The position numbers and the translations under genes are program-made. DNA of 64,000 nt, taken from NCBI GenBank assembly GCA_965199495.1, contig CBDASK010000002.1:1-64000 (forward strand), read 5' to 3'. Below, piece after piece: positions 6,788 through 64,000 of the stretch (its first letter is position 1; each line of letters opens with the position of its first letter). The notes beneath the pieces were generated by a model. It saw only the letters and a list, made by a program, of their open reading frames with translations. It was not told the origin of the DNA and searched no databases. This DNA is from Abditibacterium sp. (GTDB taxonomy: Bacteria > Armatimonadota > Abditibacteriia > Abditibacteriales > Abditibacteriaceae).

Positions 6788-6788
6788 T

Positions 6789-14298: not shown

Positions 14299-14504
14299 GC
14301 AAGCCATTGACTTCTGCGCCAGTAAGCGATAAAATCGAATGCGACTGCCATTCGCGCGAACTAAACTTTCTGCTTCGCCTTCAAGGTCAGTTGAACGCTG
14401 CTGCCCAAAATGGCGGCACCAATCATCTGGCGCTGGCGATGCGAATGCTGGGATTGCGAATCCAAGAATACAGGAAAAACCAAAATGTCAAAAACCAAAG
14501 CTGA
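14295..14504 (+). CDS. hypothetical protein
   Basis: TTGA overlap with the portal stop. Confidence 0.45.
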   Translation: MSKPLTSAPVSDKIECDCHSRELNFLLRLQGQLNAAAQNGGTNHLALAMRMLGLRIQEYRKNQNVKNQS

Positions 14505-14876: not shown

Positions 14877-14987
14877 TTGATACGTTGTGTTTCGTTGTTT
14901 TCATGTTTGGGGTGCCGATTTCATTCTGGTTGGAATCGGAGCTTTGTCGCTTAGTTGACGACAAGCCAGAGAGAGTTACTGGCAAAT

Positions 14988-15056
14988 TCACGAGTGGCCA
15001 AGTGGTAAGGCACCGGTTCGCGACCGTATTCGCAGGTTCGATTCCTGCCTTGTGAG
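14988..15056 (+). tRNA. tRNA-like gene, Gln-type scaffold with an aberrant anticodon arm
   Basis: Acceptor TCACGAG/CTTGTGA, D-arm GCCAAGTGGTAAGGC, T-arm GCAGG-TTCGATT-CCTGC; anticodon arm CCGGT-TCGCG-ACCG is short; no encoded CCA. Confidence 0.7.
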
Positions 15057-15067
15057 TTGTAAATGTC

Positions 15068-24957: not shown

Positions 24958-25031
24958 CCGCAAATGTGCGACGGACTTAATTCTATCACATCCATATTTA
25001 GAAGTCAAGGGGCATTTGAGGTAAAATTTAA
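24958..25031. repeat. promoter cassette copy A (minus-strand TTGACT-17-TAGAAT)
   Basis: Imperfect direct repeat of 26197-26271. Confidence 0.8.
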
Positions 25032-26196: not shown

Positions 26197-26271
26197 TCGC
26201 AAATGCGCGACGTAACTAATTCTATCACGTCCATAATCAGAAGTCAAGGGCGATTTCGAGTAAAATTTAAA
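26197..26271. repeat. promoter cassette copy B (minus-strand TTGACT-17-TAGAAT)
   Basis: Imperfect direct repeat of 24958-25031. Confidence 0.8.
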
Positions 26272-46964: not shown

Positions 46965-49730
46965 ATGACAACAATCGAAGATATTGCACGCAAACATGGA
47001 ATGAAACTCGACGCTGGCGAAACCGGTGGGCCGCGTTGGAAAGGTCGCAATCCCTATGAAGCGGGCGCAACCGAAAATGGTTTCCATTTATTCCCTCTCG
47101 GTTCAAAGCTGGACGGGAGCGAAAAGGGTGGCTGCGCTTGGCAACGCACGCCCTCGCGGTTTTATTCAGCGCAAGAGATCGCGCGCTTGGAAGGTATTCC
47201 CTATCAGGATTACGAAGGGTCTTTGTCCGACACCAGGAACGGCAAAGGCTTCATCGTGCCCAACGTCAGCTTCGACACACGCTCGCTCGAAGAACGCGGG
47301 CTGAACGAAGAGGCGCAGCGCAACTGGAACATCAGTAATGCTCGCGGCAAAACCTCGCCCTGGGGCGAGTCGCGCATTTGGCCGACCTACTTCCCAAACG
47401 GTGCGACCGGGCGCAGTAGAGTCAAATTCCGCTATCCCGCCAAGCAACTGGCGTTGCCGAATTACAAGGGTGGCTCTCCGGCCAAGACGATCTGGGACAA
47501 GGCAACTGAGTCGCTGGGGATGCCGGTCGCCTACGGTTTGAACCTGATCGAACCGGGCGCAACAGTGTGGCTCGTCAACTCAGAACTGGCGGTGTGGTTG
47601 TTCTGGCAAGAAGGCTTGACGGCGATTTGTCCTCTTGGCGAAGGTCGTAGCGAGAAAAGCTACAATGAAATCGTTCGAGAAGTGCGCGCCAAAAAAGCGG
47701 GCGAACTACGCGTTTTGCTCGACAATGATACGGGCGGCCGCACCGGTTCGGCGCGGGCATGGAAAGCGGTCAAAGACACCGGCTTGTCGTTTACCATCTA
47801 TGACCTTTCGACGGCGCCCAAAGAGAAGTATGATGCCAGCGATTTGTGGGAGTTCTGGCGGCAGTCCAATTTCGAGGGAGACGCCGAAGAAGGCACTTTA
47901 ATTCGCGTAGGCGATGATTTCGAGGAGTTTCTTCACGGCCAGTCGGTCGCCAACGTCGCCACATTGACGGCGTGGGATAGCATCAACGCCAAGATCGAAA
48001 ACGCGGCGCAGTTGGAAGCAGCCACGCAGAAAGGCGGATCGCTGGCCGACCAGATCGAAAAGGGGCGCAAAGGTGAAGACGACACCAAGGATGGCGATGC
48101 AGAAAAGCTGCTCAAGATGTTGCGCGGACACCAAATGTTCCACACGGAGTCGCAGGACTGCTACATCGTGATTGACTTTCCCGATGGGCAACGCAAGATC
48201 TTCGATATAAATTCCGGCTCTTTTGGTCAATGGGTGCGCTATATTTACAACCGCGACACGGGTAAGGTCGCCAAAGAGATGGCGGTTAAAAGCGCAGTGG
48301 CAACACTGGCGGCTCAGGCACTTTATGATGAGCCGGAGATGGCGGCTCACAATCGAATCGCGGCTTTTGGTGGAAAGTTTTATCTCGATCTGTGCAACAA
48401 ATCGGCGGAAGTGGTCGAAATCTCTGCGCAAGGTTGGCGCGTTACCAAAGACTGCCCGGTATTTTTTAAGCGCGCAATCGGAATGCAAGAGCTTCCCTAC
48501 CCGGTGCGCGATCCACAATGCTCGAACACGGAAGTGTGGGGAAAGTTTCGCGCGAACATCAATTACGGCGAAGAACGCAACTGGATTTTGATTGTGGCGT
48601 GGATGGTTTCGGCTCTGGTGCCGGGACGCTGGCCCTGCCCTATTCTGTCGGTCAACGGCGAGCAGGGGTCGGCAAAGTCATGGCTAACGCGCCTGGTGCG
48701 ACAGACGGTTGACCCCAACGATGGCTTCATGGTGCAAACCATTAAAGAAGAAAAAGACGTGGTGGTGGTCGCCGAAAAGATGCGCGTGGTCGCCCTCGAC
48801 AACCAATCCCATATGCCGGAGTGGATGTCCAACTTGCTGGCGGCGATGGTAACGGGCACGCCCTATATGTGCCGCACGTTGTTTACCAACGACGATCACA
48901 AAACCTATAAAGGGCAACCGGCGATTATCCTCAACGGCATCCCTGAACGGATCGGCGGCATTGACTTTAATGACCGCGCTTTGAAGCTCTTTATCCCGAA
49001 GTTGGTGGACAAGGGCTACCGCGAAGAGGCGGAAGTGACAGAAGAATGGGAGCAGATACGACCGGCGCTTTTGTGCGCGATTTTGGATGCGATGGTTTGC
49101 GGACTCAAGAATTATCCGCGCAAGCGGGAGATTAAGGATGGACGCACTCTGCCACGTATGGCGGACTTCGCGACATGGGTGATGTGCTGCGAAGAGGCGC
49201 TCCCTTTTGAACTCGACTCCTTTTATAACGCCTATTCCGGCAACATCGAAGAGAGCGCCGCCGCCGACTTGGAAGGGTTTTTCCCAACCGTTGTGATGGA
49301 GTTCGCCAAGACGTGCGTTCGCTTTTCCGGTACACCGGGTGAATTACACGACGCTTTGCACAATCAGGCGATTCTTCATCTGGTAGAGCGTGAGCATGAT
49401 GCCGTCTTAGCCGCAAAGCTGTCAGCAGTCGAGCGCGAGCGGCACCGGGAGCGAGTGAAAGAGCGCGTCTCGATTGAGCTTTCCAAGATGAAAAGTTGGC
49501 CTCATACACCGACATCCACAGGCGTGGCCCTCACCAAAATCTCGCCCTCATTGCTCAAAAGCGCCAAGATTAGCTGCTTTCGCGGCACCCGCAATTCGCT
49601 GGGCACGCCATGGTGCATCCACGATCTGAGCGAAGGTTCGGACGAGGCAGGGAATAAGATGCTTGGCCAAGCGCCGCCAAAAAACGGCAAGCTGAATTTT
49701 GACGACGATCCGTTCGATGATGCGAAGTAG
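46965..49730 (+). CDS. primase-helicase (TOPRIM plus P-loop ATPase)
   Basis: LLDNDTGG TOPRIM-like motif; Walker A GEQGSAKS; VALDN. Confidence 0.75.
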   Translation: MTTIEDIARKHGMKLDAGETGGPRWKGRNPYEAGATENGFHLFPLGSKLDGSEKGGCAWQRTPSRFYSAQEIARLEGIPYQDYEGSLSDTRNGKGFIVPNVSFDTRSLEERGLNEEAQRNWNISNARGKTSPWGESRIWPTYFPNGATGRSRVKFRYPAKQLALPNYKGGSPAKTIWDKATESLGMPVAYGLNLIEPGATVWLVNSELAVWLFWQEGLTAICPLGEGRSEKSYNEIVREVRAKKAGELRVLLDNDTGGRTGSARAWKAVKDTGLSFTIYDLSTAPKEKYDASDLWEFWRQSNFEGDAEEGTLIRVGDDFEEFLHGQSVANVATLTAWDSINAKIENAAQLEAATQKGGSLADQIEKGRKGEDDTKDGDAEKLLKMLRGHQMFHTESQDCYIVIDFPDGQRKIFDINSGSFGQWVRYIYNRDTGKVAKEMAVKSAVATLAAQALYDEPEMAAHNRIAAFGGKFYLDLCNKSAEVVEISAQGWRVTKDCPVFFKRAIGMQELPYPVRDPQCSNTEVWGKFRANINYGEERNWILIVAWMVSALVPGRWPCPILSVNGEQGSAKSWLTRLVRQTVDPNDGFMVQTIKEEKDVVVVAEKMRVVALDNQSHMPEWMSNLLAAMVTGTPYMCRTLFTNDDHKTYKGQPAIILNGIPERIGGIDFNDRALKLFIPKLVDKGYREEAEVTEEWEQIRPALLCAILDAMVCGLKNYPRKREIKDGRTLPRMADFATWVMCCEEALPFELDSFYNAYSGNIEESAAADLEGFFPTVVMEFAKTCVRFSGTPGELHDALHNQAILHLVEREHDAVLAAKLSAVERERHRERVKERVSIELSKMKSWPHTPTSTGVALTKISPSLLKSAKISCFRGTRNSLGTPWCIHDLSEGSDEAGNKMLGQAPPKNGKLNFDDDPFDDAK

Positions 49731-49741
49731 CGAGAATAACG

Positions 49742-50164
49742 ATGAACCGAAACGAAATCGAGCAGATGCGCGCGCGTATTGCAGCGGCGTGGGGTGTTGA
49801 TGTGAGCGAAGTTGAATATGAAGCGTTAATTTACGCAGCGCAAACCGATTCTTTTACTATCGAATTGGGCGCCAATAAAATTCAGTGGCGCCCAGAAGTC
49901 GCGTGGCTTTTACTAAAAACCACTGAGGATTATATGCCCGCGCAAATTGATATGAACGCGCCAGTTGCGCACAGGTTCAGTGTTCCGATTACGACGCTGC
50001 GGCTGCATTTCAATGCAAAAGAATTTTTCGCAATCGCGCACTTTCTCTATTGCATGGGTTACGACATCCAATTCTTGATAGACGCGAGTGTGACAGTCAG
50101 GGCGCACGATAAACTCGAATGGGCGCAACAGATGAAAGAGAAGGGATTTGCGCTGGCAAAATGA
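49742..50164 (+). CDS. hypothetical protein, paralog of 40157-40558
   Basis: Shared termini. Confidence 0.7.
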   Translation: MNRNEIEQMRARIAAAWGVDVSEVEYEALIYAAQTDSFTIELGANKIQWRPEVAWLLLKTTEDYMPAQIDMNAPVAHRFSVPITTLRLHFNAKEFFAIAHFLYCMGYDIQFLIDASVTVRAHDKLEWAQQMKEKGFALAK

Positions 50165-50177
50165 GGTGAAATGACGC

Positions 50178-50214
50178 AAAAAGGCCGTGACTTTTAAAAG
50201 TCACGGCCTTTTTT
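50178..50214. terminator. bidirectional terminator between the two genome arms
   Basis: Perfect palindrome aaaaaggccgtgacttttaaaagtcacggccttttt. Confidence 0.9.
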
Positions 50215-51076
50215 ATTGATCGAGAACTGAAATTAGTCGAGAGAACCATTCCCTCGCTTCTGGCGTTGGTGCCAGAAGCGAGATATGGTTCTCAACAAGC
50301 TCAAGGCAAAGGCTGTGGAGATTCTCCGGTGATTGGTTGAGATTGCTTTGCGTTGAACTTGTCTTTAGATCGCTTTTCGATAAATCGCCTATATTCGGCG
50401 TGCTGATCGAGAGTGAACCCTGCGGCGAGCATATTGGCCCGCTTTCTCTTGGCTCCCGATTCTCGGATTCGTTGGATTCGAGTGGCTTCGTCGTCTCCTG
50501 AAAAGAGGGGCTTTCGGGGTTTTGAGACGGGTTCTGCCCCGTTCCCGTCTCGCTTTCTTTTTTTCCTATCTCGCCCGTTTTCATCGTGGATTTAGTGCCG
50601 TGTTTCGTGGTGTAGGTGCGCGTCTCACTTATAACGTTTGAAGTGAGATTTTTGTCTTTGCGGATACCCGAAACAAAAGGTTGCGAAACGCCACACTGTT
50701 TAGCAATTGCGTTATCGCTCCACTGGCTCCATTCGGCATCTTCGAGCAAAACCATCACGGCGCGGCGCTTGTCAGCGATGGTGCGGTTGACCTGTGAAAT
50801 AGAGTTGGCGCCGACAGAGTAGAGAATAGCAGCGCGTTTATCGCCTTGGCGTATATCGGCGTCAATTTCAGTCAAGCCAGCTTTCTTTGCAGCGTTCCAG
50901 CGATGAAATCCATCGGCCATCCAGTAATCCGTTCCGTCGTAGAAAACTACGACGGGCGGGAACTGTGCGCCTTCTTTCATATCATCAGCGTAAGCGTCTA
51001 TGGCGGTCGCGTCCATGAAAGCGCGTGACTGAGTGCCGCCGTTGCACTTAATCTGAGTGAGAAGCAACTTCTCCAT
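50213..51076 (-). CDS. ParB/Srx-like protein with HTH
   Basis: FPPVVV...DGFHRW; WSDNAIAKQCGVSQPFV. Confidence 0.8.
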   Translation of the reverse strand: MEKLLLTQIKCNGGTQSRAFMDATAIDAYADDMKEGAQFPPVVVFYDGTDYWMADGFHRWNAAKKAGLTEIDADIRQGDKRAAILYSVGANSISQVNRTIADKRRAVMVLLEDAEWSQWSDNAIAKQCGVSQPFVSGIRKDKNLTSNVISETRTYTTKHGTKSTMKTGEIGKKESETGTGQNPSQNPESPSFQETTKPLESNESENREPRESGPICSPQGSLSISTPNIGDLSKSDLKTSSTQSNLNQSPENLHSLCLELVENHISLLAPTPEAREWFSRLISVLDQ

Positions 51077-52001
51077 TTACCACCTCCACATCGGGGAACA
51101 ATTCGACTTGCTGCGATCCGGTAAAGGGCGACCCAGCAATGTAAATCGGAACGGAATCTCCAAGCGGGGTAAAATTTGCTGCCAAGTGTTTTCCAAGGAA
51201 GAGGCGGTTCCATGCCTCGGCTACGGTGCGAGAAACGGTCGCCATGTTCTTCGTCTTTGGGATTCCGGAAAACAGCAAACGGCGTTCCAAATAGTTCCCT
51301 GCCTTGGTGCGGTTATCCTCCGAAACCAAGTCTCCCCAAAATTGTTGCGCTTTGAACGGCGCGTAGCGAAAAGTCACCATCCCTACGGCGGTTACGCCTC
51401 GCCATTTTAAGACACGCGATAGCGCCTGATGAGCGCCCGTAATGGCATTTTGGTATTGCCGAAACTCGTTATTCCAGTCGCGGATAGATTTTTCTTTATC
51501 ACTTGTAGATCGAACTAATAAAGAACGATTTGAGCGCGGCGAAAAACCACCTTCGATTAGTGCAGTCGCCGCACTAATCATGTTGAGTTGCGTCGAGGAA
51601 AGGGCAAGTGATTCTTGGATTCCGGTTGCTCGAAAAGAGTCGTTGACTGTGCGCGATTTGCCGTTTGCTGAATTGTAATCAGCAGCCACAGAAAGCTCAT
51701 CTTCGAGGATACGTGTGCGAACAACGAAAGGAGTCGTAACCTCGCTATGCACAACTGCGTTCAGCCGGTGTTGTCCATCAGTAAGGAATGTGTCGTCGCC
51801 AACGGTAGCAAAGTTGACTTGGGAGAGAGCGTCAAATTCTCCCATCTTCATCAGGCGAGAGTAAAGCAAAACGGTTTCGCGATCAAGTTTGCGCTGTCCG
51901 CGAAAAGGGCGTTGTGATAACCATTCGCGCGCAAGGTCGGGAGTGACTTGCACGAGTTCGATGCTACCCGAATTGCCGGGCATTTGGATGATATTTTGCA
52001 T
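51048..52001 (-). CDS. ParB-like N-terminal domain protein
   Basis: VTPDLAREWL, QRKL, DGQHRL. Confidence 0.75.
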   Translation of the reverse strand: MQNIIQMPGNSGSIELVQVTPDLAREWLSQRPFRGQRKLDRETVLLYSRLMKMGEFDALSQVNFATVGDDTFLTDGQHRLNAVVHSEVTTPFVVRTRILEDELSVAADYNSANGKSRTVNDSFRATGIQESLALSSTQLNMISAATALIEGGFSPRSNRSLLVRSTSDKEKSIRDWNNEFRQYQNAITGAHQALSRVLKWRGVTAVGMVTFRYAPFKAQQFWGDLVSEDNRTKAGNYLERRLLFSGIPKTKNMATVSRTVAEAWNRLFLGKHLAANFTPLGDSVPIYIAGSPFTGSQQVELFPDVEVVNGEVASHSD

Positions 52002-52110
52002 TTTTCGATGTGGTTTACTTGTCTTACAAGTGGTCGGATGCTCTCAATGAGCGATACTTGCATCGCATTTTTCGATGCAGAGGCTTGGCGCGGGCGTGCG
52101 TCGAGCCTTT

Positions 52111-52290
52111 TTATTTTTCTCTGGCGATTTGGATGTCGGCCAAAGCATACGGGCCTTGCTGTTTTGCCAGTATGCGTATCACGCCGCGCAACCAATGAGA
52201 CGCATTTTCGGCGTCCGATTGCTCGACAGCGTGATTCAATAACTCGACATCGCTGGCTTCAATGGAGAAATTGCGTAGAATTTTTTTCAT
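52111..52290 (-). CDS. ribbon-helix-helix-like regulator
   Basis: GGAGGT RBS; RNFSI...NASHWLR pattern. Confidence 0.5.
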   Translation of the reverse strand: MKKILRNFSIEASDVELLNHAVEQSDAENASHWLRGVIRILAKQQGPYALADIQIAREK

Positions 52291-52351
52291 AATTTCACCT
52301 CCAATAAAAGGATAACCCTTGCGCAGCAAAAGCGCAAGGGTTATTTGAGGT

Positions 52352-52561
52352 TTACGTCCACTGAGATTCCAAGCTCATCTGGTCGGGATGAACTGGTTCG
52401 GGTTGTGGTGCGTTGCCCGCGTGGTAATGGACAATCTCGACTAAGGCGGCGCTAATGCGCTGTTGGTCGGGGCTGTCAGTCGGCGAAGATGGCGGGAGAT
52501 TATCTTTCAATATCGCTCCCGCCATCTTGTGAGCTTCGCGTTTGGCGGCACGTTGGTTCAT
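52352..52561 (-). CDS. hypothetical protein
   Basis: ATGA coupling. Confidence 0.6.
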   Translation of the reverse strand: MNQRAAKREAHKMAGAILKDNLPPSSPTDSPDQQRISAALVEIVHYHAGNAPQPEPVHPDQMSLESQWT

Positions 52562-52770
52562 GGTGTTTTGGTTTCGACTGGAAATTTCCAGTCAAGGTTG
52601 TGCGCTTGGGCGTATGCGTTCATTTTTTCGATTTGGTCGTCGGTCGGACGCAAGCCATTCTCGAAGTAGGAGACTTTGGATTGTCCGTTTTCTCCCAGAT
52701 CCAGGACTACGCGCCCAAACTTTTTCTGGTTCATTTCTGCTAATCGGCGCAGTTGGCGAACTGGATTCAA
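52558..52770 (-). CDS. XRE/Cro-like HTH protein
   Basis: TTG start after GAGGTG; VRQLRR...MNQKKFG...QSKVSYFENG. Confidence 0.7.
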   Translation of the reverse strand: MNPVRQLRRLAEMNQKKFGRVVLDLGENGQSKVSYFENGLRPTDDQIEKMNAYAQAHNLDWKFPVETKTP

Positions 52771-52916
52771 TTCGACACCTCGTTTTTTCGGCACGTCTTC
52801 CAAAACGAGTAGACGCCGTAAGTAACGATGGCGGCGTAAATTAGAAATGCAATGACGCCGTATATGGGGTCGTGAACGCCGTGTGGCGCGGGAGTGAGGG
52901 TGATTTGGGGTTTCAT
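52767..52916 (-). CDS. 49-aa membrane peptide (not in the ORF track)
   Basis: MKPQITLTPAPHGVHDPIYGVIAFLIYAAIVTYGVYSFWKTCRKNEVSN; stop overlaps the HTH start. Confidence 0.55.
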   Translation of the reverse strand: MKPQITLTPAPHGVHDPIYGVIAFLIYAAIVTYGVYSFWKTCRKNEVSN

Positions 52917-52933
52917 GCTGTTTTGATCTTGCT

Positions 52934-53143
52934 TTACTTGCAAAAGGTGGAGAAGATGTGTTCTCGAATCTGTTCAAGTTGGTCGGCGGGACGCAAACAG
53001 AGAACGCCGATAATGTCCGACCTGTTCACGGCGGAGTTTTGTGAGATTCCGCCGTTTAATCGCGCCTTTTCGTTCATCTTTGACGCAATTTTTTCGATCA
53101 CTTCCAGCCTTTCGGCGGGCGTCCAATCTGGTGAAATGTTCAT
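52934..53143 (-). CDS. hypothetical protein
   Basis: ATGA coupling. Confidence 0.55.
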   Translation of the reverse strand: MNISPDWTPAERLEVIEKIASKMNEKARLNGGISQNSAVNRSDIIGVLCLRPADQLEQIREHIFSTFCK

Positions 53144-53640
53144 GGTGTGGAAAGTAGTTTGACAAGCTCGGCAATGGCCTTTTTTTCGGTTTTTACGACT
53201 TCGAGCTTTTCGAGGTGGACAACGACGGTGCGTCCGGCGAAATCGAGTGGGAATTTGTCGTCTTTCGCCGTAACAACAACCGGCGTGTTTTTGAAGTCGG
53301 GGACAAGGTGTAGGTGATCGCCAGAATGCCGAAAAAGCATTCTACGAGGTATCCCTGTGATTATTTCGATTAAGAAATCACGGGTAGCACAGGACATTTT
53401 GCCTTTAAAAACGTCGTGCAATACGACCTGTCGCTTCATGTTGATTGTCGCAATTGTTTCCCATTCTTGAAAATAACGCGTAGGCAAAATGGACTTGTCC
53501 ATCGAGTGCGCGATGGCGTGCGCCAAAACGGTTTTACCTGAGCATTTTGGCCCGACGAGAACGAGGGCTTTGTTGGGCGTGGCTGTGTTTTGAACGTCGG
53601 CGATCCATGCGCGGATGGTTTCGAGTTGTTGTTGTTTCAT
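53140..53640 (-). CDS. small P-loop NTPase
   Basis: GPKCSGKT; VVLHD. Confidence 0.7.
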   Translation of the reverse strand: MKQQQLETIRAWIADVQNTATPNKALVLVGPKCSGKTVLAHAIAHSMDKSILPTRYFQEWETIATINMKRQVVLHDVFKGKMSCATRDFLIEIITGIPRRMLFRHSGDHLHLVPDFKNTPVVVTAKDDKFPLDFAGRTVVVHLEKLEVVKTEKKAIAELVKLLSTP

Positions 53641-53668
53641 GGTAATCGGGTTTGCTGTATAAGCAACT

Positions 53669-54538
53669 CTAATTGTCTTTCAAGTGTTCGCGGACAGAAT
53701 CAAAAACCCATTGCGGGGCGCGCTCGTCGTCGCTGTATAATAGCTGGCGACCATCGAGCAAGAAGTAAAAGTAATCGGAGTCCAAGTTATCTTTGACCGA
53801 GTATAAACTGACCTCAAGGGAACCTGCTTTGTGTTCTCTGATTCCGATTTGCCACTGTTCTTTGTCTTCAAGGTTAATTTCGGGCGTTTCTTCGTCGCCA
53901 GGTGCGGCGTATACCTGATCACTGATGGCCTGGTTTATGTCCACTAACTGTCCGGCGATGTCAGAGAGCGTGGATTGAATGCCTTCCATCGTCTGCGCCG
54001 AAAAGTCGGTGGATAGTGCTTGCCAAAACATGATTGGCGTCATCTTATCTTGCGGAGCCGCGTTATTGAGCGCGGCAATGGCGCGACTGCGCACTTCGTC
54101 TAAAGACGGCCTCTTGAACGCTTTGGCAACGGGTGATAACGGCGGATCGCTGAGAATTTTACCAACATCGGCCATCGAACTGATTGGCGTTTGGATTATC
54201 TCGCCTGTTTGCGGACACTTGGTTTCCATCGCCAAGAGTGCGCCATTGGGGAACCTCTTGGCAATAAAAGCATTGCCGTCAATTTCGATCTTGGGCGAGT
54301 ATTCGCCGGTTTCTTCGTCGGGAGTAATGTCGAACTGAATCTGATTGCCGTCTGTATATTCGGGCACATCTCCAAACATGGCTGCGAGGGCAAAACGCAA
54401 TTTTGCGCGCTGGGCGTCGAAAGTCTGTTCGTGTTTGGTGACGCTTTCGCGGTCAAGTTGATCGGCGCGTTGCGTATAGGCTTGGCGCGCCGCTTCGGAA
54501 AAGGTCGGGGTTTCGGGTGTGGTCTCTTGGTTGTTCAT
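53669..54538 (-). CDS. hypothetical protein
   Basis: ACCATG start below a promoter. Confidence 0.7.
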   Translation of the reverse strand: MNNQETTPETPTFSEAARQAYTQRADQLDRESVTKHEQTFDAQRAKLRFALAAMFGDVPEYTDGNQIQFDITPDEETGEYSPKIEIDGNAFIAKRFPNGALLAMETKCPQTGEIIQTPISSMADVGKILSDPPLSPVAKAFKRPSLDEVRSRAIAALNNAAPQDKMTPIMFWQALSTDFSAQTMEGIQSTLSDIAGQLVDINQAISDQVYAAPGDEETPEINLEDKEQWQIGIREHKAGSLEVSLYSVKDNLDSDYFYFLLDGRQLLYSDDERAPQWVFDSVREHLKDN

Positions 54539-54585
54539 GGTGTTTTGGTAGTCGCTCTGCCGGTATAATGATACCAGCAGGACTA

Positions 54586-54614
54586 ATTCTATCACAAGTC
54601 GCCTATATTGTATA
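54586..54614 (-). promoter_or_regulatory. promoter, GTGATAGAATTA family
   Basis: TATACA-17bp-TAGAAT with extended TG. Confidence 0.6.
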
Positions 54615-54623
54615 GCGATATTC

Positions 54624-56009
54624 TTAGCGAATGGTGCGCGAGGCGATTTCTTCCGGCGTCATTTCGTCGGGATCGGTGGTATAGTCGAACTCGAAGTCGG
54701 TGTCCAGTTGCTCGAACGCTTCGAGTTTTTCGGCGAGTTCGGTTCGCCAACGGTTGATGGCTTCGACTTTGGCTGCTTCGGCCTCGCTCGAATCTAACTC
54801 GAATTGGTTAAAGAACGGTTGTCCGCTTAAAAACCATTTGCCGGGTTGATGGATGTGGCGATGAACGAGTAAGCGGTGAGAAGCCACGTTAAGCTCCCAT
54901 GTCGTCGGCGTGCGGTCTTTTTCACCTTGGCGAAAAGATGAAATGTCTTTCCAGTTCGGAGTGACGCGCGGTATATCGGCGCTCGCTTGGGCAGCAAGGC
55001 GCCTGTTCATATTGGCAACGGCAACTCGCTCGACGGTCTGCGGGAGATAAGTTTCGAGCGGCGTGCGACGGTCGGAGCCAAAGCCGTAAATCTCGAAATC
55101 TTCGTTATCTAATGTCGCCGCCGTCACATAGGCTTTGACCTCGAACGTGTCGCGGTTGATTGTGACGCCGTTATAATATGGCGTTTTGGTGGTGCCGTCT
55201 ACTTGCTGCCGCCACAGATTGATCGAGGAAATCGCTTGCTCGAAGTCCTCGGTTGATGGCTCGGCTGGCATGATCCAGTTTTCGCCGCAACCAGTGGGGG
55301 CAGGGCCGTTTCCAACTCGTATAATAGAGCCGTTAGCAAATTTTAAGTCGCGCGTCTCTTCGGTTGCTTCGGCTTCATCGAGAAGCGTTTCCAGTTCATC
55401 TAAGATAGACGGCGGGAGAAGAACGAGGCGGGTGATGTCGCCTTTCTGGACGTTCTTTATTTCGGCGCGTTTCTCGGCGATGAAGTCGCGGATTGTTTTA
55501 GTGTTATTCATGGGAATTTGGGTGGGTTGGGTTTCGCCGGTCGTCTCGGTTGCTGTATATGGAGTTACGGCGTCTGTCGTTTCGATCTGCGCAGTCTCAT
55601 ACTTCTCTTGATACTCCGCTTTCAACTGCTCGACTTGCTGTTTGATATGGGGCTGCGACTGCCATTGCTCAAGAAATTCGATGCGTCCCATTGCGGTCTT
55701 CTGTCCAAGTGCGGGGTGAATGTGAGAATGTCCGTGGTGAAACTCGTAGGCGCTGCGGGTTGAAATGCCGTCAATAGCAGCGCTTAAAACTTCGGGGTGA
55801 ATCTCTTGGCCGCCCGCCGCCGCTTTGATTATCGTATTGTGTATATACGGATTTTCAGCGATTACGCAAGCGGGCACGAATCCACCTGACAAGGCTTCGC
55901 CGTGAACCGCAATTCCGTAATAGTTGCTGTGAGACGGATTGACCGGGCCTAAAGAAGGGAGCGCAAACCTTTCTTCGTCCGACAAGTCAGCGAACTGTTG
56001 CGGCGTCAT
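54624..56009 (-). CDS. multi-module hypothetical protein
   Basis: Long ORF with an internal gene-start-like motif at 55511. Confidence 0.7.
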   Translation of the reverse strand: MTPQQFADLSDEERFALPSLGPVNPSHSNYYGIAVHGEALSGGFVPACVIAENPYIHNTIIKAAAGGQEIHPEVLSAAIDGISTRSAYEFHHGHSHIHPALGQKTAMGRIEFLEQWQSQPHIKQQVEQLKAEYQEKYETAQIETTDAVTPYTATETTGETQPTQIPMNNTKTIRDFIAEKRAEIKNVQKGDITRLVLLPPSILDELETLLDEAEATEETRDLKFANGSIIRVGNGPAPTGCGENWIMPAEPSTEDFEQAISSINLWRQQVDGTTKTPYYNGVTINRDTFEVKAYVTAATLDNEDFEIYGFGSDRRTPLETYLPQTVERVAVANMNRRLAAQASADIPRVTPNWKDISSFRQGEKDRTPTTWELNVASHRLLVHRHIHQPGKWFLSGQPFFNQFELDSSEAEAAKVEAINRWRTELAEKLEAFEQLDTDFEFDYTTDPDEMTPEEIASRTIR

Positions 56010-57708
56010 TTCGTGCGCGTATCTTGGCGCGTTTGGTTCGCCGGTAAGCGTTTCGATCTGCGGTTCTTCGGGCTTCGTCGTCGCTTGGTGCCGGTGTCGG
56101 ATTGTTCATCCAATTCTCGACGGTGCGCGCCGCTTGCTTACGTCCGGTGATTTCGCGTAACATCTGCCAATCCCGTGGCATTTCGCCGCGCGTGATATGC
56201 GCGAACTCTTCTTCGACGCGGTGACAAAGTTTGGCAGCTTGTTCATGCGCTTCGCGCGCCTTGTTGTTTTGATGGGCGTTGACGTTTGCGTTTCCGTGCA
56301 TTTCGCGCGGCGCCTGAAACTCGGTCGCCACGCCATTGGTATAAACAAACATCTCGCGCGCCTTGTTATAAAGCGCGCATTGGTTCGCAAGCCTGTGGCT
56401 GTATTTGGGCGCCGTTCCTCTCATTACGACAAAGAACGCGGCGCGCACATTTTCGGGCGCCTGGTTCACGGCGCTGGCTTTGTCTCGCTCCTTCAACTTT
56501 TGCAGCAAAGTCGCGTGTGCCTGGGCTTGTGCGTGTTCGGGTGTGCCTTCAATGCTGTTTATCGCGTGTTCTGCGGCGCGCAAACGCTCACTCGCGGCGG
56601 TTATCTCTGGCTTCATAGCGTCCGCGCCCAACGAATGCCACGCGGCTAAGGCATCGTTATATTCGGCGCGCGCGGCGTGTTCGTCGGTCGGGTCGTCCTG
56701 TGACGCTGCGGCGTCCTTAAACTCGTTGCGTCGGCGGTGCAAGTCGTTCCAATATGCGCTCGTTAGTTCTGGCAAAACTTCATCGAACGCGGTGCGCGTG
56801 CAAATTGAACGGATGTTTAACCCTGCTGCGCGCATCGCTTCAAGGGCTTGCCATGCAGAAAATTCGCCAAAATAATCATCGTGGTAAAACGGGTTTTCGA
56901 CATCAAATTCTTTCTCGTGCTGGCGGCGCATATCGGCCAAAACGAGCGCCGCGCGGTATTTTTCCAGCAGAAATTTCTTATCCATTTCGAGTTGGCCCTC
57001 TGGATTGGCTTCGGCGCGCTCTTTCAAGTCGGCCAAATAGTTATCGAGATTGGCGGTGATTGCGGCGCGTTGTGCGCGGTCGGTGGCAAAATAAAACTCT
57101 TCGGCTGCGCGTTCGCTGGGCGCGATTATGCCGCGTTCTAAGCGGGTTTCGATTATCTGGTTTTGGCGTGCCTCAAGGTTGCTCACGGCTTGCTCGGTCG
57201 CGTCGGGCGTTGGTTCGTCTTCCGGCATCACGTAAACGCTGGCGAATTTCTCCGCGAAAATTTTATCTTTGAAAACAAAGCCTTGCGGGTTGCTCTGGTA
57301 TTTGCCGTGACAAACACGGGCGCCGTCTGTGAGACGTTGCAACTCGTTGGCGCTCGTGCGCTCGTCAATGGCTACAAAGTGGGTGTTGTTGGTCATGGTA
57401 TAGGTCTCCGTGCTGGTGTTGGTGCTGGTCGGTTCGGGCGTTGGCTCTGGGGTTGATTCGATCCGGGAAAAGTTGCACAAATTGAACAAGTGTTTACCGG
57501 CTTCGCGCGCGATTTCTTTCAATGCTTTCACATTCGCCGCGTCCGTCCAATTCAGGGAGTTTTCTTCTTCGTCGGTCGCAGGGACTGTTACGACGTGGGC
57601 AAATTGATATTTGGCGCGCTTGTTTTTAGCGTTCTGATTCTGGCGAAATATAATAATTTCTGGCGCTGGTGTTGTCGTGGTTTCGGGCGTGGTGGTGGTG
57701 TTGTTCAT
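55987..57708 (-). CDS. multi-module hypothetical protein
   Basis: Long ORF with an internal gene-start-like motif at 57396. Confidence 0.7.
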   Translation of the reverse strand: MNNTTTTPETTTTPAPEIIIFRQNQNAKNKRAKYQFAHVVTVPATDEEENSLNWTDAANVKALKEIAREAGKHLFNLCNFSRIESTPEPTPEPTSTNTSTETYTMTNNTHFVAIDERTSANELQRLTDGARVCHGKYQSNPQGFVFKDKIFAEKFASVYVMPEDEPTPDATEQAVSNLEARQNQIIETRLERGIIAPSERAAEEFYFATDRAQRAAITANLDNYLADLKERAEANPEGQLEMDKKFLLEKYRAALVLADMRRQHEKEFDVENPFYHDDYFGEFSAWQALEAMRAAGLNIRSICTRTAFDEVLPELTSAYWNDLHRRRNEFKDAAASQDDPTDEHAARAEYNDALAAWHSLGADAMKPEITAASERLRAAEHAINSIEGTPEHAQAQAHATLLQKLKERDKASAVNQAPENVRAAFFVVMRGTAPKYSHRLANQCALYNKAREMFVYTNGVATEFQAPREMHGNANVNAHQNNKAREAHEQAAKLCHRVEEEFAHITRGEMPRDWQMLREITGRKQAARTVENWMNNPTPAPSDDEARRTADRNAYRRTKRAKIRARNDAATVR

Positions 57709-57750
57709 GGTTTGGTTTCCTGTTGGTTTGGGTTGTGTTTCGATCTGAAA

Positions 57751-60700
57751 TTATTCGGCGCTCGGATGGGTGCGCTCGACTGAAATGCGAAACGCAATTT
57801 GTGGTTCTTGGGCGCGCAGTTCGTTAATTTTGGCGTGCGCGTCTTCTCGGTCTGTGGCGTCTGCGGCGGTTTTCCAATGGCCGTTAGAGAATCCCACGAC
57901 TGAAAACTGGTCGCGAGTTTTTCGGCGGTAGCGTTTGGGGTCGGTCTGGCTGTATAGTTCGGCTACGAATGCCGTATCTCCGATTCGTGTCGCGTTGGCT
58001 GCGACTTCTGCAATCCAGCGCGCGACGGCTCGCAAGTCGTCGGGCGTGCCCGATTTGGCGATTTCTCGGAGTGCGGCGCGCGTGGCTTTGGTGGCGGCGT
58101 CGCTGCGTTCGGTTTCGGTGCGCTCGTTCATTTCCTGCGCGGTGGTGGTGATGTTCATGTGGTTTTATGCTCCTTTGTTGCCTCTGGCGGCTTCTGCTGC
58201 TTGCATCGCTTTCTCGAAATCGGCAAGCGCGCTCACGGCTGCGCGCAAAATTTGCGGGGTGCAAAGTGGCGGGTTTTCGGCGTATAGCGGTTTAAATTCC
58301 TTTGAGGCGCGGCGATAGTGAACGGCGTGGCGGAATCGCTTTTCGTGGGTTTCGTGAACTTGAAACATCGCCTTAACTCCTTCGGTTTCCGGCGTTCTGT
58401 GCCAGGGGCGGCAATGGGCGCCATTATAAATCACCTGTCTAATTTCGTAGGCGATAGACGAATGAAGTTTTTCGTATTCGTCGGATTTCGATGCTTGCGG
58501 CGTCTGGTTAATTCTCTCAAGCAATATGGTGGCGGTTTCGCTGGTTATGAGTTGTGTGTTTTGCATGGTGGTATTTTGGCCGCGTATAGCAGCTAAAGCG
58601 CGGTGGCGTCTCGCTCGCCGTGCCGGTCGTTCCGGTGCCGCGTTGGGTGTTTGGTCGGTGTTATTTGGCGGCGCGCTTTTGCTTGTGGCGGTAGATTGCG
58701 CGGCTCGTCTGGTCGTCTCCTGTCCAGTTTTGCGCGTTGCGATTGGTTTTTATGCAGTTGGCGCGTTGTTCTTTAAGCGCGATTGACGGGTAAAGTTTTA
58801 GCGGCACTCCGTTTACCGTATAACCCTCGCTTTCCAACTGCGCGACAACTTCAAGCGCAACCTCTTCTAAGCACTCGCCGCGCGCATATTCTTCGCCGTC
58901 AATGGCGCCTAAACTCTGATGTTCGCCCTTAAAGTCAATCGAGATAAACCAATAGTCGGGGCCGTCTTCGTAAACCTTTTTAATGGCGTCAATCTGGCGC
59001 GCGGTTTGAACTGCTACCATTTCGCGCGCAACTTGTTTGGATGCACCGGCTTTGCGGTAGCAAGCAAAATTCCCGGCGTCGGGGTCGCATGGCGCAATTA
59101 GGCGGTATCCCTCGCGTCCGGTGAAAATGCGCGCACGCGCGTCGCTCTGCGCGGAGTTGCCGTCTTTTAGCTCGTGGCCGTAAAATTCGTCATCCTCGAA
59201 TGGGTTGGCATCGTCGTCGCGCGTGATTTCTGCGGCGTCCAAGATGTTTTGAAACTCGACGGTCAAACCGGCGCTGGCGATTGCTTCCAGCTCATCCATT
59301 AAGTTATCGGTCGTCCAAAAAGTTGCTTCTTGCGCTTCGTCTGCGCTTTTGGAAAGGTGCGCAACTTGGGCGCGCTTCTCAGCAATAAAGGTGCGGAGTT
59401 GTTGGGCGGTTGTCTGTTCGGTCTGGTTGATGGTGGTGTTCATGTTGTTATTTTCCTTGCGTCGGATCGAAATTTTCTGATTTTCGACCTTTTCAGAGAA
59501 TGGCGCGCACACTCTGAAAAGGTCGCGCGCTCGGTATAGTCGGGCGCGCGACGGTGGGTTATTCGCCAAAGAAAAACTGCTGGCAATACTTCAAAAGCGT
59601 TTCCTCGTCGGCTTCGCGGTAGGTCGTCCAACTGGTAAACCAATCCTGCGCTTGTAACTGCGCCGTTATTGGCTCGCCGTGTTCGTTGAGTTCGCCAATA
59701 ATCTGCGTGGCTGGGCCTCCGGTTGATAGCAAGATTTTAAACTCGTCGGGGCTGGCTTCTGCGCCTGGTGTGTGCCACGCGCTGCGAACTTCGACACTTA
59801 GCGGGTCTTCCTGGATTGTTTCGCGGGCGTCGTCTTCGTCGGGCAAGGCGTCGAACGCGGCGCGCGCTGCGTTGGCGATTTCGCGCGCTTCCATTGCTAA
59901 TCCTCTTTCGTGCGAGGCTTCTTCTGCATTGTATTTTTCAGGGTCGTTTTCGGTATTCTCGCGCGCTTCCTCTTCGGCTGCGTCCGCTTCTTCTTCTGCG
60001 GTGTCTGCGGCGCTCTCTGCCTCGTCTGCGGCTTCTTCCAGTTCGGCGCGCTTGTCGGCATCGAGCGCGCTTACCATTTCGGCGATAGACGTATAGGCAT
60101 TGCGCCCGATTTCCTGCAGTTCGTTGGCTTGCGCCTGTTCGGTGGTCTGGGTGTTGTTGTTCATGTTGTTTACTCCTGCGTTTAAAGTCCGCTCGACTAA
60201 AAAGCGCGTGGCATCGCGATTGCCTTGGCGGTCGTTAGCCGCTCGCGCCTGTGGTGTTAAATCTTGATGCGCGCAACCTTCAAACGATAGGCGCCCTCTG
60301 GCGCGTTCTCGCGGTATTCTCTCAACGTGGCAAGTGCTTCGGCGCGCGTGTCGCTGGCGGTTAGTTCGTCGTAGCCGCATCCATAATTCCCCCAGATTTG
60401 AAACTCGTCGCGCGTTTTGCGCGGAGCCTTGGCAAAGCGGGCGCGCTCGGCTTGGGTTGCGCGCTCGGCGGCGATTTGCTCGCGGTCGCGTTGTTCGCGC
60501 GCTTCGTTATAGGCTTTTAGCGCGTCGGGGCTGGTGTTGCGATTGGCTTTCAGTTCAGAGATTTGTTTGCGGGTTATCATGGTTTGGTGTGTCCTGTGGG
60601 TTTGGGTTGTTGTGCGAGATCGAAATTATTTGGCGTTGATGCGTTTCAGTTCGGCGTCTTCCTGGTTGTCGCAAACTCGCAAGTCGCTCGGCTCACCGCT

Positions 60701-62756
60701 GCCTTCAATCATCGGGTTTGCTTCCCATAACTGCGCGCCGGTATCGTATCCCAAACGCTCAGCGATGCTGTATATCTCGTCCCACGCGTCGAAGTCGGCG
60801 CGGTCGGTGTAGTTCTCTTGAACGCGGGCTTTCCATCCGGTTGCGCCTGATTTGCAGATTGTGTTTTTCATGGTGTTAGGGTGCCTCTATAGGCAAAGGC
60901 GGCGCAACGTCTCGAACGTTGTGTATAGCTCCTTAAGCTCGCCGCGACGTTGGTGTTTAATTGTAAACCGGAAAATCGCCTTTTTCGTCGCGCCATTTTC
61001 CGTTTTGGATGCGCGAAACGACGCTCGCGCTAATCAGGATGCCGCGCGTTTTATCGTCGGCGCCCTCGCACAAGTCAAGCAAACAATATCCCTCGCGCGA
61101 CATTTTGATTAGCGCGCCGTCGCCGTATCCGCGTTTAGTGCCCGCCGTTTTCGCGCCGCGCACAGTCTCGAAAAACTCGTTGTTTCCAATTTTTTTCATG
61201 GTGGTATAGTGGCCTTCTCACTGGTATAGCCTCATCAGCAACCGCGAAACGGTTGGACGCCTCGCGGCGTTTCGGCTTGATTAGTTGGTGAACGTGACGC
61301 AATCGGCGCAGATAAAGCGGTTGCCTGTTGGGTTGCTGCCCTTGTATTCGTAGCCGTCCGCGCTGTGCTTGTGGCATCGGAAACATACTGGCAACTCGCT
61401 GGTATCGGGCATATCTTGCGGCTCGTAAAATAGCTCGTGCCATTGTTCGCCGCACTCGTCGCTGGCAATCGCTTGTCCGGCGTCGCCTTCCTCGTCGGTT
61501 TTGGTGAGAATCAATTCCTCGCGGTTTAACTCGTCGTCGTCATCGGCTTCGCTGGTGTCTCGAATGATGCTGGAATAAGACGCGATTTCAAAGAATCCGT
61601 CATCAAATTCGGGCGCGTTGCCGCTCTCGTCAATCAGCAGATAGGCTTCGCGATTTACGAAATGTTCGCCGCGCGTGGCTTGCATACTGTCGTCGTCATT
61701 GAATGTAAAAGTCCAGAGCGTTAAGCCGGTGACGGCTGCGGCTTGCTGCGCTTCCTGCATTTTGTTTAGTTCGCAATAAATTGCGGGAATTTGGGAGCCT
61801 TCGGTTGTGGTAAGGATGATGGTTTTCATGGTGGTAAATGTTGATTTGATCGAAATTTATTTCAGATTAAGCGCGCCCGCGAACCGGGCGCGCTGTTGGT
61901 TAAATAGAGAGTTCGGCCTCAAGCGCGTCAAGGCTGGCGCTGGTGTGGTCGTATGAATTGTGAATTGCTTCACGGGCGGCGGCGGCTCGGCGGTCGCTTT
62001 TGAGCAATTCGGCGCGGTCAATGTAGAATTGCGGCACCGGGCGGGCGGTATAGCGACTGGGGTTGTTGTCGGTCGGTTTGGAGAGGGTGAGTTTGTTATT
62101 CATGGTATCGGGTGCGCGCTCTTGGTTGGTTATCCAATGCTGCCACGAGGAGGCGGCGCGCTGGGCATCGTTGCCGCGTTTGCGGCGTGTTGGTTAGCAG
62201 CATTGCGTCCAACTGCCTTCGTAGTCGCCTTCGCCGCGAACATAGATAAGGTAATCGCCTTCTTTGCGGGCGTCGCTTTTGGCAAAAACTTGGTCAGCAT
62301 AGACAGCAAAGCCAAAATCTTCAATTACCCATTTTTCAAAATCCTCCTCGGTGTCAAGGACGGCGATGGGGCGCGATTCGTGCATTTCGGCTTCAAGGTC
62401 TTCGCTCAGGGTTTCGGTGTTAATGTTCATAGTGTTTTATCCTTCGCGCTCTTAGTTCCTATCAGTTCTAAACCCGCCAAGTAGGGGCGGCGCGTGGGTT
62501 CGTTGCCCCTTGCGGGGGCGGTTGATTAATAATCCATGTCTATTCCCATCGCCTCGCCAATAATCACGGCGGCATCGGTTTTCTCGTCGGCGCTGATAGC
62601 GCCAGCTCTTTCGATTACATTGCACGCATATTCGATGCATTCAGCGTTTTTGATGCTATATCCAGCATCGCGGAGCGCGGCACCAACTGCGGGCGCTTTG
62701 TCCGCACTGATATAGCGCGTTTGAATTCTCTGAGCTGGGTGTGTGTGGTTTGTCAT
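57751..62756 (-). CDS. array of small probable early genes (57751-58158, 58165-58566, 58661-59443, 59559-60164, 60257-60580, 60626-60871, 60957-61199, 61281-61829, 61900-62103, 62194-62430, 62526-62756)
   Basis: Co-oriented, non-overlapping ORFs with A/C-rich leaders, mostly ending ACCATG or ACATG. Confidence 0.7.
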
Positions 62757-62779
62757 GATGTTTTTTTAGCCTCGTCGGG

Positions 62780-63225
62780 CTAATTCAATGATATACGCGA
62801 TAACGCTGAATTAGTCCGCCAGCGATGTCGCTGGCGGCTCTTTCAATCGGAAACAGGCATCGCATAAAAGCCGGTCGCGCGGCTCGTTGGCCGTGCGTGC
62901 TGTCCGCTTCTGCCTGTTATTACGTTAGATGCCACGAATTTAAAATCAATCGTTCAAGATGCACTTAATGCGCTCACCTCATTGCATATTTCAGGTCTCA
63001 GAGAGTGTGAGCGCGTCTCCCGATTGATTCGAGTTTTCGCAGTTTCTAACGCCGTGTTTTCAATGTTCAAGGCTCGCCGGTTCCTACTCGTGGCAATCGC
63101 CGCTTTCGTCGCCTTCGCCTAATTGTGTGTCTCTGTCTGAGTTCGCCACAGTGGAGAGAAGCGGTTTGTCAGGCACAACCTGAGGTAGCTACTTTCCGAT
63201 TTGGGCGCCCTCTTTCGGGGACAAT
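62780..63225 (-). ncRNA. candidate large structured ncRNA or leader
   Basis: No ORF in the track; at least six perfect 7-9-nt long-range complementary pairs; directly below a strong promoter. Confidence 0.6.
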
Positions 63226-63229
63226 AGAA

Positions 63230-63258
63230 ATTTTACGGCATATCGCGATAGAAGTCAA
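63230..63258 (-). promoter_or_regulatory. strong sigma70-like promoter
   Basis: TTGACT-17bp-TAAAAT with an A/T-rich upstream tract. Confidence 0.8.
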
Positions 63259-63259
63259 C

Positions 63260-63920
63260 CCCTTTTTGGAAAATAAATAAAAAAAACTTTATCGTTACAA
63301 AATACGCCTTTCGCGCGCGTCTTATAATACGCCAAAGGATGAATAGGGAATTCCCTTATTGCGAGGCCATTATCATTATTATTGCGAATCAAGTCGCAAT
63401 AATATGTAATGATAATGATTGATTATGTTTGCTGATAGGTTAATGATGGCAATGAGTTGGAGTGTTGAGCGTGGAAGAAACTGCTTATTACAGTAATAGT
63501 GTAAAAATGTATCGGGGTGAATCATAGTCGTGAAGTCACTAAATAACTGTAATAACCGTTACATAATCAACACAAAACAACAGCGATTTAAGCGTGAATA
63601 GCGCAAAAATGCCGCTTTAAACTGAAACTTTATTAGTCTACCACAAAAGGCAAAATGTAAAAGTGCATTTTTTATTCAAAATATACAGGGAGCATCAAAC
63701 GTGTTTTAGCTTAATGCTTAATCGTATGTATTTAATAGAGAGAAAATGGCAAACGGCGTTACACTCGATACATTTTTACACTTTTGGCCTGTTTTACTGT
63801 AATTCTGAGCGTGAATGTAATTTTATTGAAAAGTGAATCAAAACATATCACGATTACATTAATACACTATTTTCTATTTCACGAAAAAATTACAAAGTGC
63901 ACTTTCTCTGTCTTTTTTGG
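63260..63920. other. AT-rich non-coding region, origin or control-region candidate
   Basis: Sharp GC drop, palindromes, short repeats. Confidence 0.45.
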
Positions 63921-64000
63921 CGATTGCTGGCGCCTGGGGGTGTGCCACGTCGCGGCTTTTCGGGCCGCGTGGCGCTTTGTGGATAGGAGTCTATCTGCTG

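Follow-up and report, generated by a model that had tools for sequence, protein, structure and literature searches.

A possible structured 5' leader at the head of the leftward operon of an Abditibacterium tailed-phage replicon

The stretch of DNA analysed here (hereafter, the window) comprises 64,000 nucleotides (nt), namely bases 1-64000 of C2, a replicon contig of 64,557 bp from Abditibacterium sp.; the other contigs of the same assembly are a 4.72-Mb chromosome and a 24.7-kb contig. Judged by the proteins that it encodes, C2 is a tailed-phage replicon. Its rightward genes occupy positions 1 to ~49730, and its leftward genes run from 62756 down to 50213. At the head of the leftward arm, the following features can be differentiated on the minus strand: (i) a sigma-70-type promoter (63230-63258); (ii) a stretch of 469 nt (62757-63225), the subject of this work; and (iii) gene 1 of the arm (62526-62756). 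An initial annotation had taken the stretch for a large pseudoknotted non-coding RNA (ncRNA), the first transcript of the leftward arm. In our reading, to which a probability of about 0.5 can be given, it is the cis-acting, strongly folded 5' untranslated region, or leader, of the leftward (early) operon of the phage.

The promoter, which the initial annotation had described as near-consensus, is formed by TTGACT, a spacer of 17 nt and TAAAAT, and agrees with the consensus at 10 of 12 positions. Sites of the type TTGACN18TANAAT occur four times in the window (0.08 expected; 0/100 shuffles reach four), and the four phage promoters, located at 14307-14335 (+), 24980-25008 (-), 26219-26247 (-) and 63230-63258 (-), share the form TTGACTTCT-N14-TA[AG]AAT. 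The single 16S gene of the host is preceded by three tandem promoters (L002, 1085-1290) of the form TTGAC[AG]-17-TA[AG]AAT followed by TTCTTCTTGC. The promoter at 63258-63230 has this host rRNA form, carries an identical GTAAAATTTC around its -10 element and keeps a loose likeness for some 20 bases further. Since the form is shared with the rRNA promoters of the host, there is good indirect evidence that 63258-63230 is a strong host-polymerase promoter, from which transcription would start at about 63223. Its spacer contains a perfect palindrome of 10 bp, TATCGCGATA (63241-63250), which is the sole exact copy in the window and might be a candidate operator; as a sequence alone it is not significant, with three sites at one mismatch or fewer versus 1.9 expected in the window. 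No antisense promoter was detected on the plus strand of the leader.

That the stretch lacks open reading frames (ORFs) was well founded: the longest ORF on the transcribed strand has 38 amino acids (aa), all six frames are closed by a mixture of TAA, TAG and TGA codons, and none of its seven small ORFs (0/7) matches a PHROG family. Stop-codon recoding was ruled out, as no single stop reassignment opens any frame. The composition of the leader is A-rich and T-poor (A 0.296, T 0.192), like that of the downstream genes. Between the promoter and gene 1, a scan of the minus strand (62757-63225) called no terminator-like site, that is, no hairpin followed by a T-run, while canonical terminators of this kind exist elsewhere in the replicon (50178-50213 and near 25950). 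A GC-rich hairpin at 62816-62837 is followed by ACUAAUUCAGCG, with no U-run, and was not called by the scan. A stand-alone ncRNA would have its own transcription end before the next gene, and none was recognised in the stretch; because no terminator was called before gene 1, it is better described as a 5' leader than as a separate first transcript.

Gene 1 encodes an orphan protein of 76 aa and has no Shine-Dalgarno sequence; its start codon, ATG at 62756, sits in an A-rich unpaired tract, as do those of other genes of the leftward arm. Most genes of this arm (57700-62760, minus strand) likewise lack a Shine-Dalgarno sequence and have A/C-rich start contexts, for instance ACCACCATG or AACAACATG.

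According to the partition function, the leader RNA would fold into a row of six local stem-loop domains, with helix pair probabilities mostly of 0.87-1.00 and of about 0.8-1.0 overall. Domain 1 (nt 3-98 of the leader; 63128-63223, minus strand, as are all the domains) is an irregular stem that begins 2 nt from the presumed 5' end and is capped by UCAGGU/GCCUGA (0.79-0.96). It is followed by domain 2 (nt 107-134; 63092-63119), a small GGCGA/UUGCC hairpin (0.87), and by domain 3 (nt 174-304; 62922-63052), a rod of 131 nt in which helices of 8, 7, 10, 8 and 3 bp are stacked, with a side hairpin (0.93-1.00). Domain 4 (nt 308-374; 62852-62918) is closed by AACAGGCA/UGCCUGUU and has an inner GCCG/CGGC stem followed by UUUUAU (0.92-1.00). 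In domain 5 (nt 381-419; 62807-62845), a 9-bp GC hairpin, CCGCCAGCG-ACAU-CGCUGGCGG, is predicted with a probability of 1.00 and is extended by UGAA/UUCA. Finally, domain 6 (nt 443-460; 62766-62783), UUAGCC-CGACGA-GGCUAA (0.90), is followed by the A-rich tract with the gene 1 AUG. This last hairpin is incompatible with an alternative helix of 8 bp (nt 412-419/439-446), which costs only +1.6 kcal/mol; the start codon is free either way.

The initial annotation listed seven pairs of complementary segments, and all of them (7/7) are exact Watson-Crick reverse complements. Four of the seven fall within high-probability local domains: three lie in domain 3, and the seventh pair is the closing helix of domain 4. 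The other three are long-range helices, 63193-63201/62845-62853, 63157-63164/62904-62911 and 63088-63095/62930-62937 (nt 25-33/373-381, 62-69/315-322 and 131-138/289-296 of the leader), which overlap bases strongly paired elsewhere. Forcing them costs +3.9, +4.7 and +5.1 kcal/mol, respectively, when taken singly, and +13.2 kcal/mol together. Hence, while the two sets of helices do cross by their coordinates, the pseudoknots deduced from the crossing are unsupported, because the long-range helices compete with the local domains and cost energy. The same applies to the supposed closing helix (63193-63201/62845-62853). The predicted fold is a row of local hairpins, not a large pseudoknotted RNA. 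The long-range helices are possible alternative folds.

The sequence feature itself is genuine and, within this replicon, stands out statistically. The minimum free energy of the leader is -158.7 kcal/mol versus -132.5 +/- 6.3 in dinucleotide shuffles (z-score of -4.14; 0/100 as good), and the density of helices also exceeds that of shuffled sequence: perfect complementary 8-mers number 12 versus 1.8 +/- 1.7 and 7-mers 22 versus 6.9 +/- 3.3 (0/1000 shuffles reach either count), and 9-mers number 3 versus 0.44 (39/1000 reach it). Distinct perfect helices of at least 8 bp number nine in the leader, one of which (nt 389-398/401-410) is really of 9 bp with a 4-nt loop. This is the highest count of the replicon, whose 1282 overlapping windows of the same length (469 nt) have 2.13 +/- 1.63; no more than six of the 1282 reach nine, all of them over the leader or the adjoining AT-rich region. 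In a local scan, unusual folding is concentrated in domain 3 and in the last 150 nt, where the transcribed strand folds better than its complement: domain 3 has a local z of -2.52 (minus) versus -1.34 (plus), the local windows of domain 5 have -3.5 to -5.0 (minus) versus -2.9 to -3.0 (plus), and the best local value of the 3' domains is -5.01 on the transcribed strand versus -3.03 on the other.

If the stretch is indeed the leader of the early operon, the course of events might be as follows. The host RNA polymerase would start at the rRNA-like promoter and transcribe ~469 nt of leader RNA, which would fold co-transcriptionally into the six consecutive stem-loop domains; transcription would then continue, for want of a terminator, into gene 1 and the remaining arm. 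The 5'-terminal structure and the dense folding, which begins 2 nt from the end, could shield this long untranslated RNA from 5'-end-dependent decay, and the dense folding could also shield it from Rho loading. The 131-nt rod of domain 3, perhaps together with domain 4, might be an RNase III site by which the mature 5' end and the amount of early message are determined; domain 3 is predicted to have the appropriate shape, i.e. a coaxial double-stranded rod of at least about two helical turns with small internal loops. Besides, an alternative fold with a regulatory role might be provided by the three long-range helices and the AAAUCGGAAAG motif, which is repeated. Transcription itself, the start site, the processing and the regulatory role of the leader are all presumed here. 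The host genome encodes one RNase III gene, as well as Rho.

The proposals on RNase III and on protection from decay and Rho are drawn by analogy from the early leaders of lambda (pL-N) and T7. The pL-N leader of lambda carries nutL and an RNase III-sensitive hairpin ahead of N. Both that leader and the present one are untranslated, head a leftward early operon directly below a strong host-type promoter and have a long hairpin before the first gene; in both phages, moreover, a short motif is present in the two divergent early transcripts (cf. nutL/nutR). But the lambda leader has only about half the length of the present one, in which no boxA was detected (a 10/13 word is at chance level); the repeated motif here forms no boxB-like hairpin, gene 1 is not arginine-rich and no N-like basic protein is found downstream. 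In the early region of T7, for its part, host-type promoters are followed by a leader several hundred nt long, with an RNase III site ahead of gene 0.3. This region resembles the replicon in its strong host-polymerase promoter, its several-hundred-nt leader and the hairpins between small early genes, and differs from it in having three promoters instead of one; there is no sequence relation, and RNase III processing is only predicted here. Read in this way, the stretch is a new orphan example of a known thing: the structured early-operon leader.

A number of observations weigh against this reading. To begin with, the opposite strand of the whole leader folds equally well (z of -4.00 versus -4.14) and, for this reason, the fold signal of the whole stretch is not diagnostic by itself of strand or of RNA as opposed to DNA; strand and RNA nature are supported only by the promoter, the composition and the local fold asymmetries. 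The first 250 nt show ordinary local folding on the transcribed strand (z of -0.9 to +1.4); in domain 1, local values of -0.4 to -0.9 on the transcribed strand are nothing out of the ordinary, and the plus strand folds better there (-3.24). Among the windows of equal size folded on the coding strand (97 of the 136 planned, with 12 shuffles each; background mean -0.78, standard deviation 1.69), the leader has only the 5th-ranking fold z, behind the terminator/ParB-end region, two windows around 52000-52900 and the tRNA region. Among 3000 random chromosome windows, 5.5% have at least nine helices, and 15.6% of chromosome windows reach the raw overlapping 8-mer count of 12. It is, furthermore, by predicted shape alone that domain 3 is a candidate RNase III substrate.

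The comparison with relatives provides two further points of this kind. Firstly, no homolog of the leader was found at the DNA level in any collection searched, and the proteins of the arm are singletons. A blastn search with 62400-63700 against phage and plasmid collections was blank, the leader has no DNA match in 26 other genomes of the host's family, and nhmmer and blastn against the host's own genome gave chance matches only (E-values of 0.4 or worse). Leader 31-mers occur in two sequencing runs of one study only, neither of them on record as RNA; the contigs of one of these runs (X2) that cover parts of the leader have 0 differences, so that no variant was seen on it. As for the proteins, gene 1 has no protein family and no Atlas match, gene 1 and a 182-aa protein have no match in IMG/VR, among 5.8 billion cluster representatives gene 1 and a 573-aa protein have no match other than themselves, and seven further proteins (the rightward protein of 100 aa at 236-538, plus six from the arm) proved to be one-member clusters in an exact-sequence look-up. 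The leftward arm is thus, as judged from these look-ups, an orphan module among ~15 billion proteins. A neighbour, the PAPS-reductase-like protein, has only relatives of 25-41% in IMG/VR. The pattern CCSAAATCGGAAAGTAG gave a single match in IMG/VR, inside a 280-aa ORF of an unrelated contig, which was taken as chance.

Secondly, a long leader is not needed by this type of phage, because a distant IMG/VR relative (L009; large terminase subunit, TerL, 42% identical) has the same promoter layout and a leftward leader of only ~55 nt. In L009 the leftward arm lies behind TTGACA-17-TAAAAT, followed on the other side by an AT-rich, repeat-bearing region of ~0.9 kb (6290-7140) and then by rightward genes, as in the present replicon. 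L009 is the sole relative with a readable control region and, being one comparator, offers thin evidence. Two closer TerL relatives were found, one 98% identical on a contig of 61,032 bp and another 82% identical; searches for TerL in the 28 genomes of the order, in genome contigs and in metagenome contigs (the latter as an alignment) gave nothing. The 61,032-bp relative shares TerL, RusA, a 921-aa protein and the capsid protein (clusters of 90% or better) and lacks the seven arm or junction proteins looked up as well as gene 1 and the 573-aa protein, which argues that arm and leader are exchanged as a block.

These same data are the basis of the alternative that survives best, namely that the stretch has no selected function and is a spacer, or a decayed coding sequence at a mosaic junction, whose folding is incidental. 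The leftward arm is a swapped module, and none of its proteins looked up is shared by the relative with 98% TerL identity; the distant relative manages with its short leader; the composition equals that of neighbouring genes; and the helix count is matched by the above fraction of chromosome windows. This alternative is nevertheless unlikely: in such a compact replicon, windows with nine or more helices are confined to the leader and its AT-rich neighbour, the z of -4.1 against shuffles is left unaccounted for, six stem-loops of high probability are not what one would expect gene decay to produce, and a useless untranslated stretch of 469 nt behind a very strong promoter would be costly.

Another alternative, closer to the ornate RNA of the initial annotation, holds that processing or non-canonical termination frees from the leader a discrete stable ncRNA acting in trans, be it an antisense RNA of the c4/CI/CA type, a decoy or a larger ornate RNA. 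It is suggested by the motif CCCAAATCGGAAAGTAG (63189-63205, minus strand; 17 nt, 94%), or GCCC(G)AAATCGGAAAGTAG in the form common to its two copies, which has no further copy in the window at two mismatches or fewer. Just beyond the end of the window (~64264-64282, plus strand), a second copy matches at 18/19 with one gap; it lies at the start of the first rightward ORF, whose 48-aa protein has no Pfam or PHROG family match and looks like a helix-turn-helix protein by eye. The 9-nt complement of the motif, UUUCCGAUU (62853-62845), is the 3' partner of the supposed closing helix, and complements both the 5' motif of the leader and the near-identical motif of the first rightward ORF. Such an arrangement is reminiscent of nutL/nutR, or of the sites targeted by c4-type RNAs, although a lone match of 9 bp is weak and proves little. 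Likewise, the three colinear long-range helices (8-9 bp) would join the 5' and 3' thirds of the leader, although they are disfavoured by 3.9 to 13.2 kcal/mol, and the 3'-terminal 150 nt have the strongest and strand-biased local fold (z down to -5.0).

Complementarity between phage ncRNAs and gene leaders is, in addition, a known logic: P1, P7, N15, P4 and phiR73 use RNAs complementary to gene leaders, and phage ICP1 and its satellites have abundant non-coding RNAs (PMC7567579). The c4 RNA of P1/P7, CA of N15 and CI of P4/phiR73 resemble the present case in lying in an operon leader below a constitutive promoter with short internal complementarities, and P1/N15-type replicons resemble C2 in standing on their own (here, as a contig) with ParB-like genes. 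Unlike c4, CI and CA, the leader has no match to the Rfam C4 antisense family (E-values up to 10), no tRNA-like signal and no terminator to control, and its pairing with start regions is at chance. Duplex energies with 82 start regions have a mean of -31.6 versus -32.5 for shuffled leaders (12 mononucleotide shuffles) and a minimum of -50.9 versus -41.0 to -57.1. No tRNA-like element was found in the leader by ARAGORN, and release by RNase P of a tRNA-like RNA of ~80 nt is accordingly not indicated. All in all, an RNA of this kind is quite unlikely.

The inability to assign the stretch to a known family proved justified. At gathering scores, the only Rfam 15 match in the whole window is a tRNA at 14988-15056, none being in the leader; the covariance models for ROOL, GOLLD, group I/II introns, RNase P, tmRNA, C4 and riboswitches were negative. 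With E-values up to 10, the region 62400-63700 gave seven sub-threshold matches (12.7-17.3 bits versus gathering scores of 37-110), to eukaryotic or viral families or far under threshold. GOLLD and ROOL, large ornate RNAs that occur in phages (PMC7567579) and prophages, are, like the leader, phage-borne, several hundred nt long, ORF-free and strongly folding (bioRxiv 10.1101/2024.12.08.627333, a cryo-EM study; PMC5737381; PMC7567579). In contrast to them, the leader matches no covariance model, is shorter (at most 469 nt), lies far from the phage tRNA (14987-15057), is predicted to form a plain row of hairpins instead of a multi-junction fold and is continuous with an mRNA.

Of the roles initially suggested for the RNA, those of ribozyme, protein sponge and anti-defence RNA received no support from any test, and the following candidates were rejected: (i) a boxA/nut-type antitermination leader, as the best match in the leader to the boxA-like GTTCTTTGAAAAC of the host rrn leader is 10/13 (63056-63068) and matches of that level are not above chance (23 in the window versus 27.8 expected); (ii) a mimic of the rrn leader beyond the promoter (similarity score of 19 versus a shuffle mean of 19.0); (iii) a mimic of the repeats of the host's clustered regularly interspaced short palindromic repeats (CRISPR), that is, an RNA anti-CRISPR; and (iv) the antisense pairing described above. 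The CRISPR array of the host (genome G000, contig C3, 2766476-2775027) has 131 identical repeats of 29 nt, with 130 spacers (33-39 nt) between them. Aligned without gaps, the leader region agrees with the repeat at no more than 18/29 positions, and the best agreement in the replicon, 20/29, lies at the tRNA. For none of the 130 spacers does a match to the phage contig, or to that of 24.7 kb, exceed 20 nt.

The least favoured alternative sees the signal at the level of DNA, within a control or origin region of 1.5 kb where scattered inverted protein-binding motifs would mimic helices. An AT-rich region without credible genes (~1 kb, 32-36% GC) lies between the divergent arms, from 63260-63900 on to ~64260, and is a candidate operator or iteron (origin) region as judged from its repeats: its part at 63260-63900 has motifs of 13-20 nt repeated in both orientations, among them GTGTAAAAATGTA, inverted at 63499-63511 and 63769-63781, with weaker copies besides. 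Even though both strands of the leader fold equally well, its helices are perfect Watson-Crick matches, CAATCG occurs seven times in 62757-64557 versus 1.9 expected from the replicon density, and L009 also has an AT-rich repeat-bearing region at the same place, this explanation is distinctly unlikely, given that most arms of the helices are separated by 30-350 nt, more than cruciforms or dimer sites would allow, that the 6-mer enrichment, a post hoc finding, is modest, that the repeat families of the AT-rich region stop short of the leader, that the leader has the A>T bias of transcribed sequence and that no replication initiator is recognised in the arm.

At 63520-63670, within the AT-rich region, one contig of 151 nt from run X2, a second sample of the same study, represents a low-depth variant with 14 differences (~91% identity), a hint that some co-occurring phage may carry a control region related to this one.

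To our knowledge, almost nothing is known about gene control in the phages of such hosts. The replicon shows a clear control layout, with four host-rRNA-like promoters, divergent arms around AT-rich repeats and an all-orphan early arm headed by a long leader. If the leader were processed or regulatory, it would give access to the control of early genes in these phages, and could find use, as a compact stabilising 5' element, in gene expression in hosts of this type. As things stand, it is a single-copy feature. A bolder version, in which the leader would be excised as a stable and abundant RNA of 300-470 nt that switches between the hairpin row and a closed form held by the three long-range helices and acts in trans on targets of host or phage, for instance via the AAAUCGGAAAG/UUUCCGAUU motif that the rightward operon shares, is a long shot; if true, it would add a class of RNA, serving phage regulation or host takeover, from a bacterial phylum that has been little studied.

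Some other features of the leftward arm deserve description. The intergenic stretches after genes 1 and 2 (62431-62528 and 62104-62196, both on the minus strand) are paralogs with ~60% invariant columns, whose predicted fold consists of a hairpin, CAACGA and a CGCGC...GCGCG stem enclosing two small hairpins, with two compensatory pairs. A covariance model of this element found no third copy in 48000-64000, and the possibility that the leader holds such a copy was rejected. The sequence AATTTCGATC is located 35-45 nt upstream of three starts (59465, 60618 and 61848); window-wide, it is not enriched (9 versus 10.2 expected).

In relation to phage identity, C2 encodes head and packaging proteins (TerL, a Mu-type portal, a prohead protease and a major head protein), together with RusA, two ParB-like proteins, a tape measure of 2400 aa and proteins resembling Mu Gam and RecT; among the ORFs scanned, none was recognised as belonging to an integrase or repressor family. 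The replicon was assembled as a separate contig and carries the ParB-like genes. The host genome has 47 matches to the prepilin-like family PF07596 and 0 to SusD, a profile consistent with the Planctomycetes-Verrucomicrobia-Chlamydiae group. The phage tRNA lies at 14987-15057 according to ARAGORN. Two proteins of the rightward arm look interrupted by self-splicing or homing elements: (i) the PAPS-reductase-like protein (2049-3773, plus strand; 574 aa), with a long insert; and (ii) a 612-aa protein (4590-6428, plus strand) whose unrelated halves, one of which is a papain-like peptidase, flank a LAGLIDADG domain. Of the four phage promoters, those at 24980 and 26219 nearly duplicate each other; both have a small hairpin and a Shine-Dalgarno site after them, and drive leftward genes inside the rightward tail-gene arm, in what looks like a moron-like arrangement.

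Between the convergent arm ends, a perfect palindrome of 36 bp (AAAAAGGCCGTGACTTTT/AAAAGTCACGGCCTTTTT; 50178-50213) with flanking A/T runs is likely a bidirectional terminator, and the strongest fold z of the 97 tested windows, -6.6, belongs to this region (50094-50562). Finally, upstream of the ParB-like genes (51970-52910, minus strand), two adjoining windows of 469 nt have fold z-scores of -5.0 and -4.8, stronger than that of the leader, and perfect 13-bp hairpins are present there at 52312-52344 and 52486-52528.

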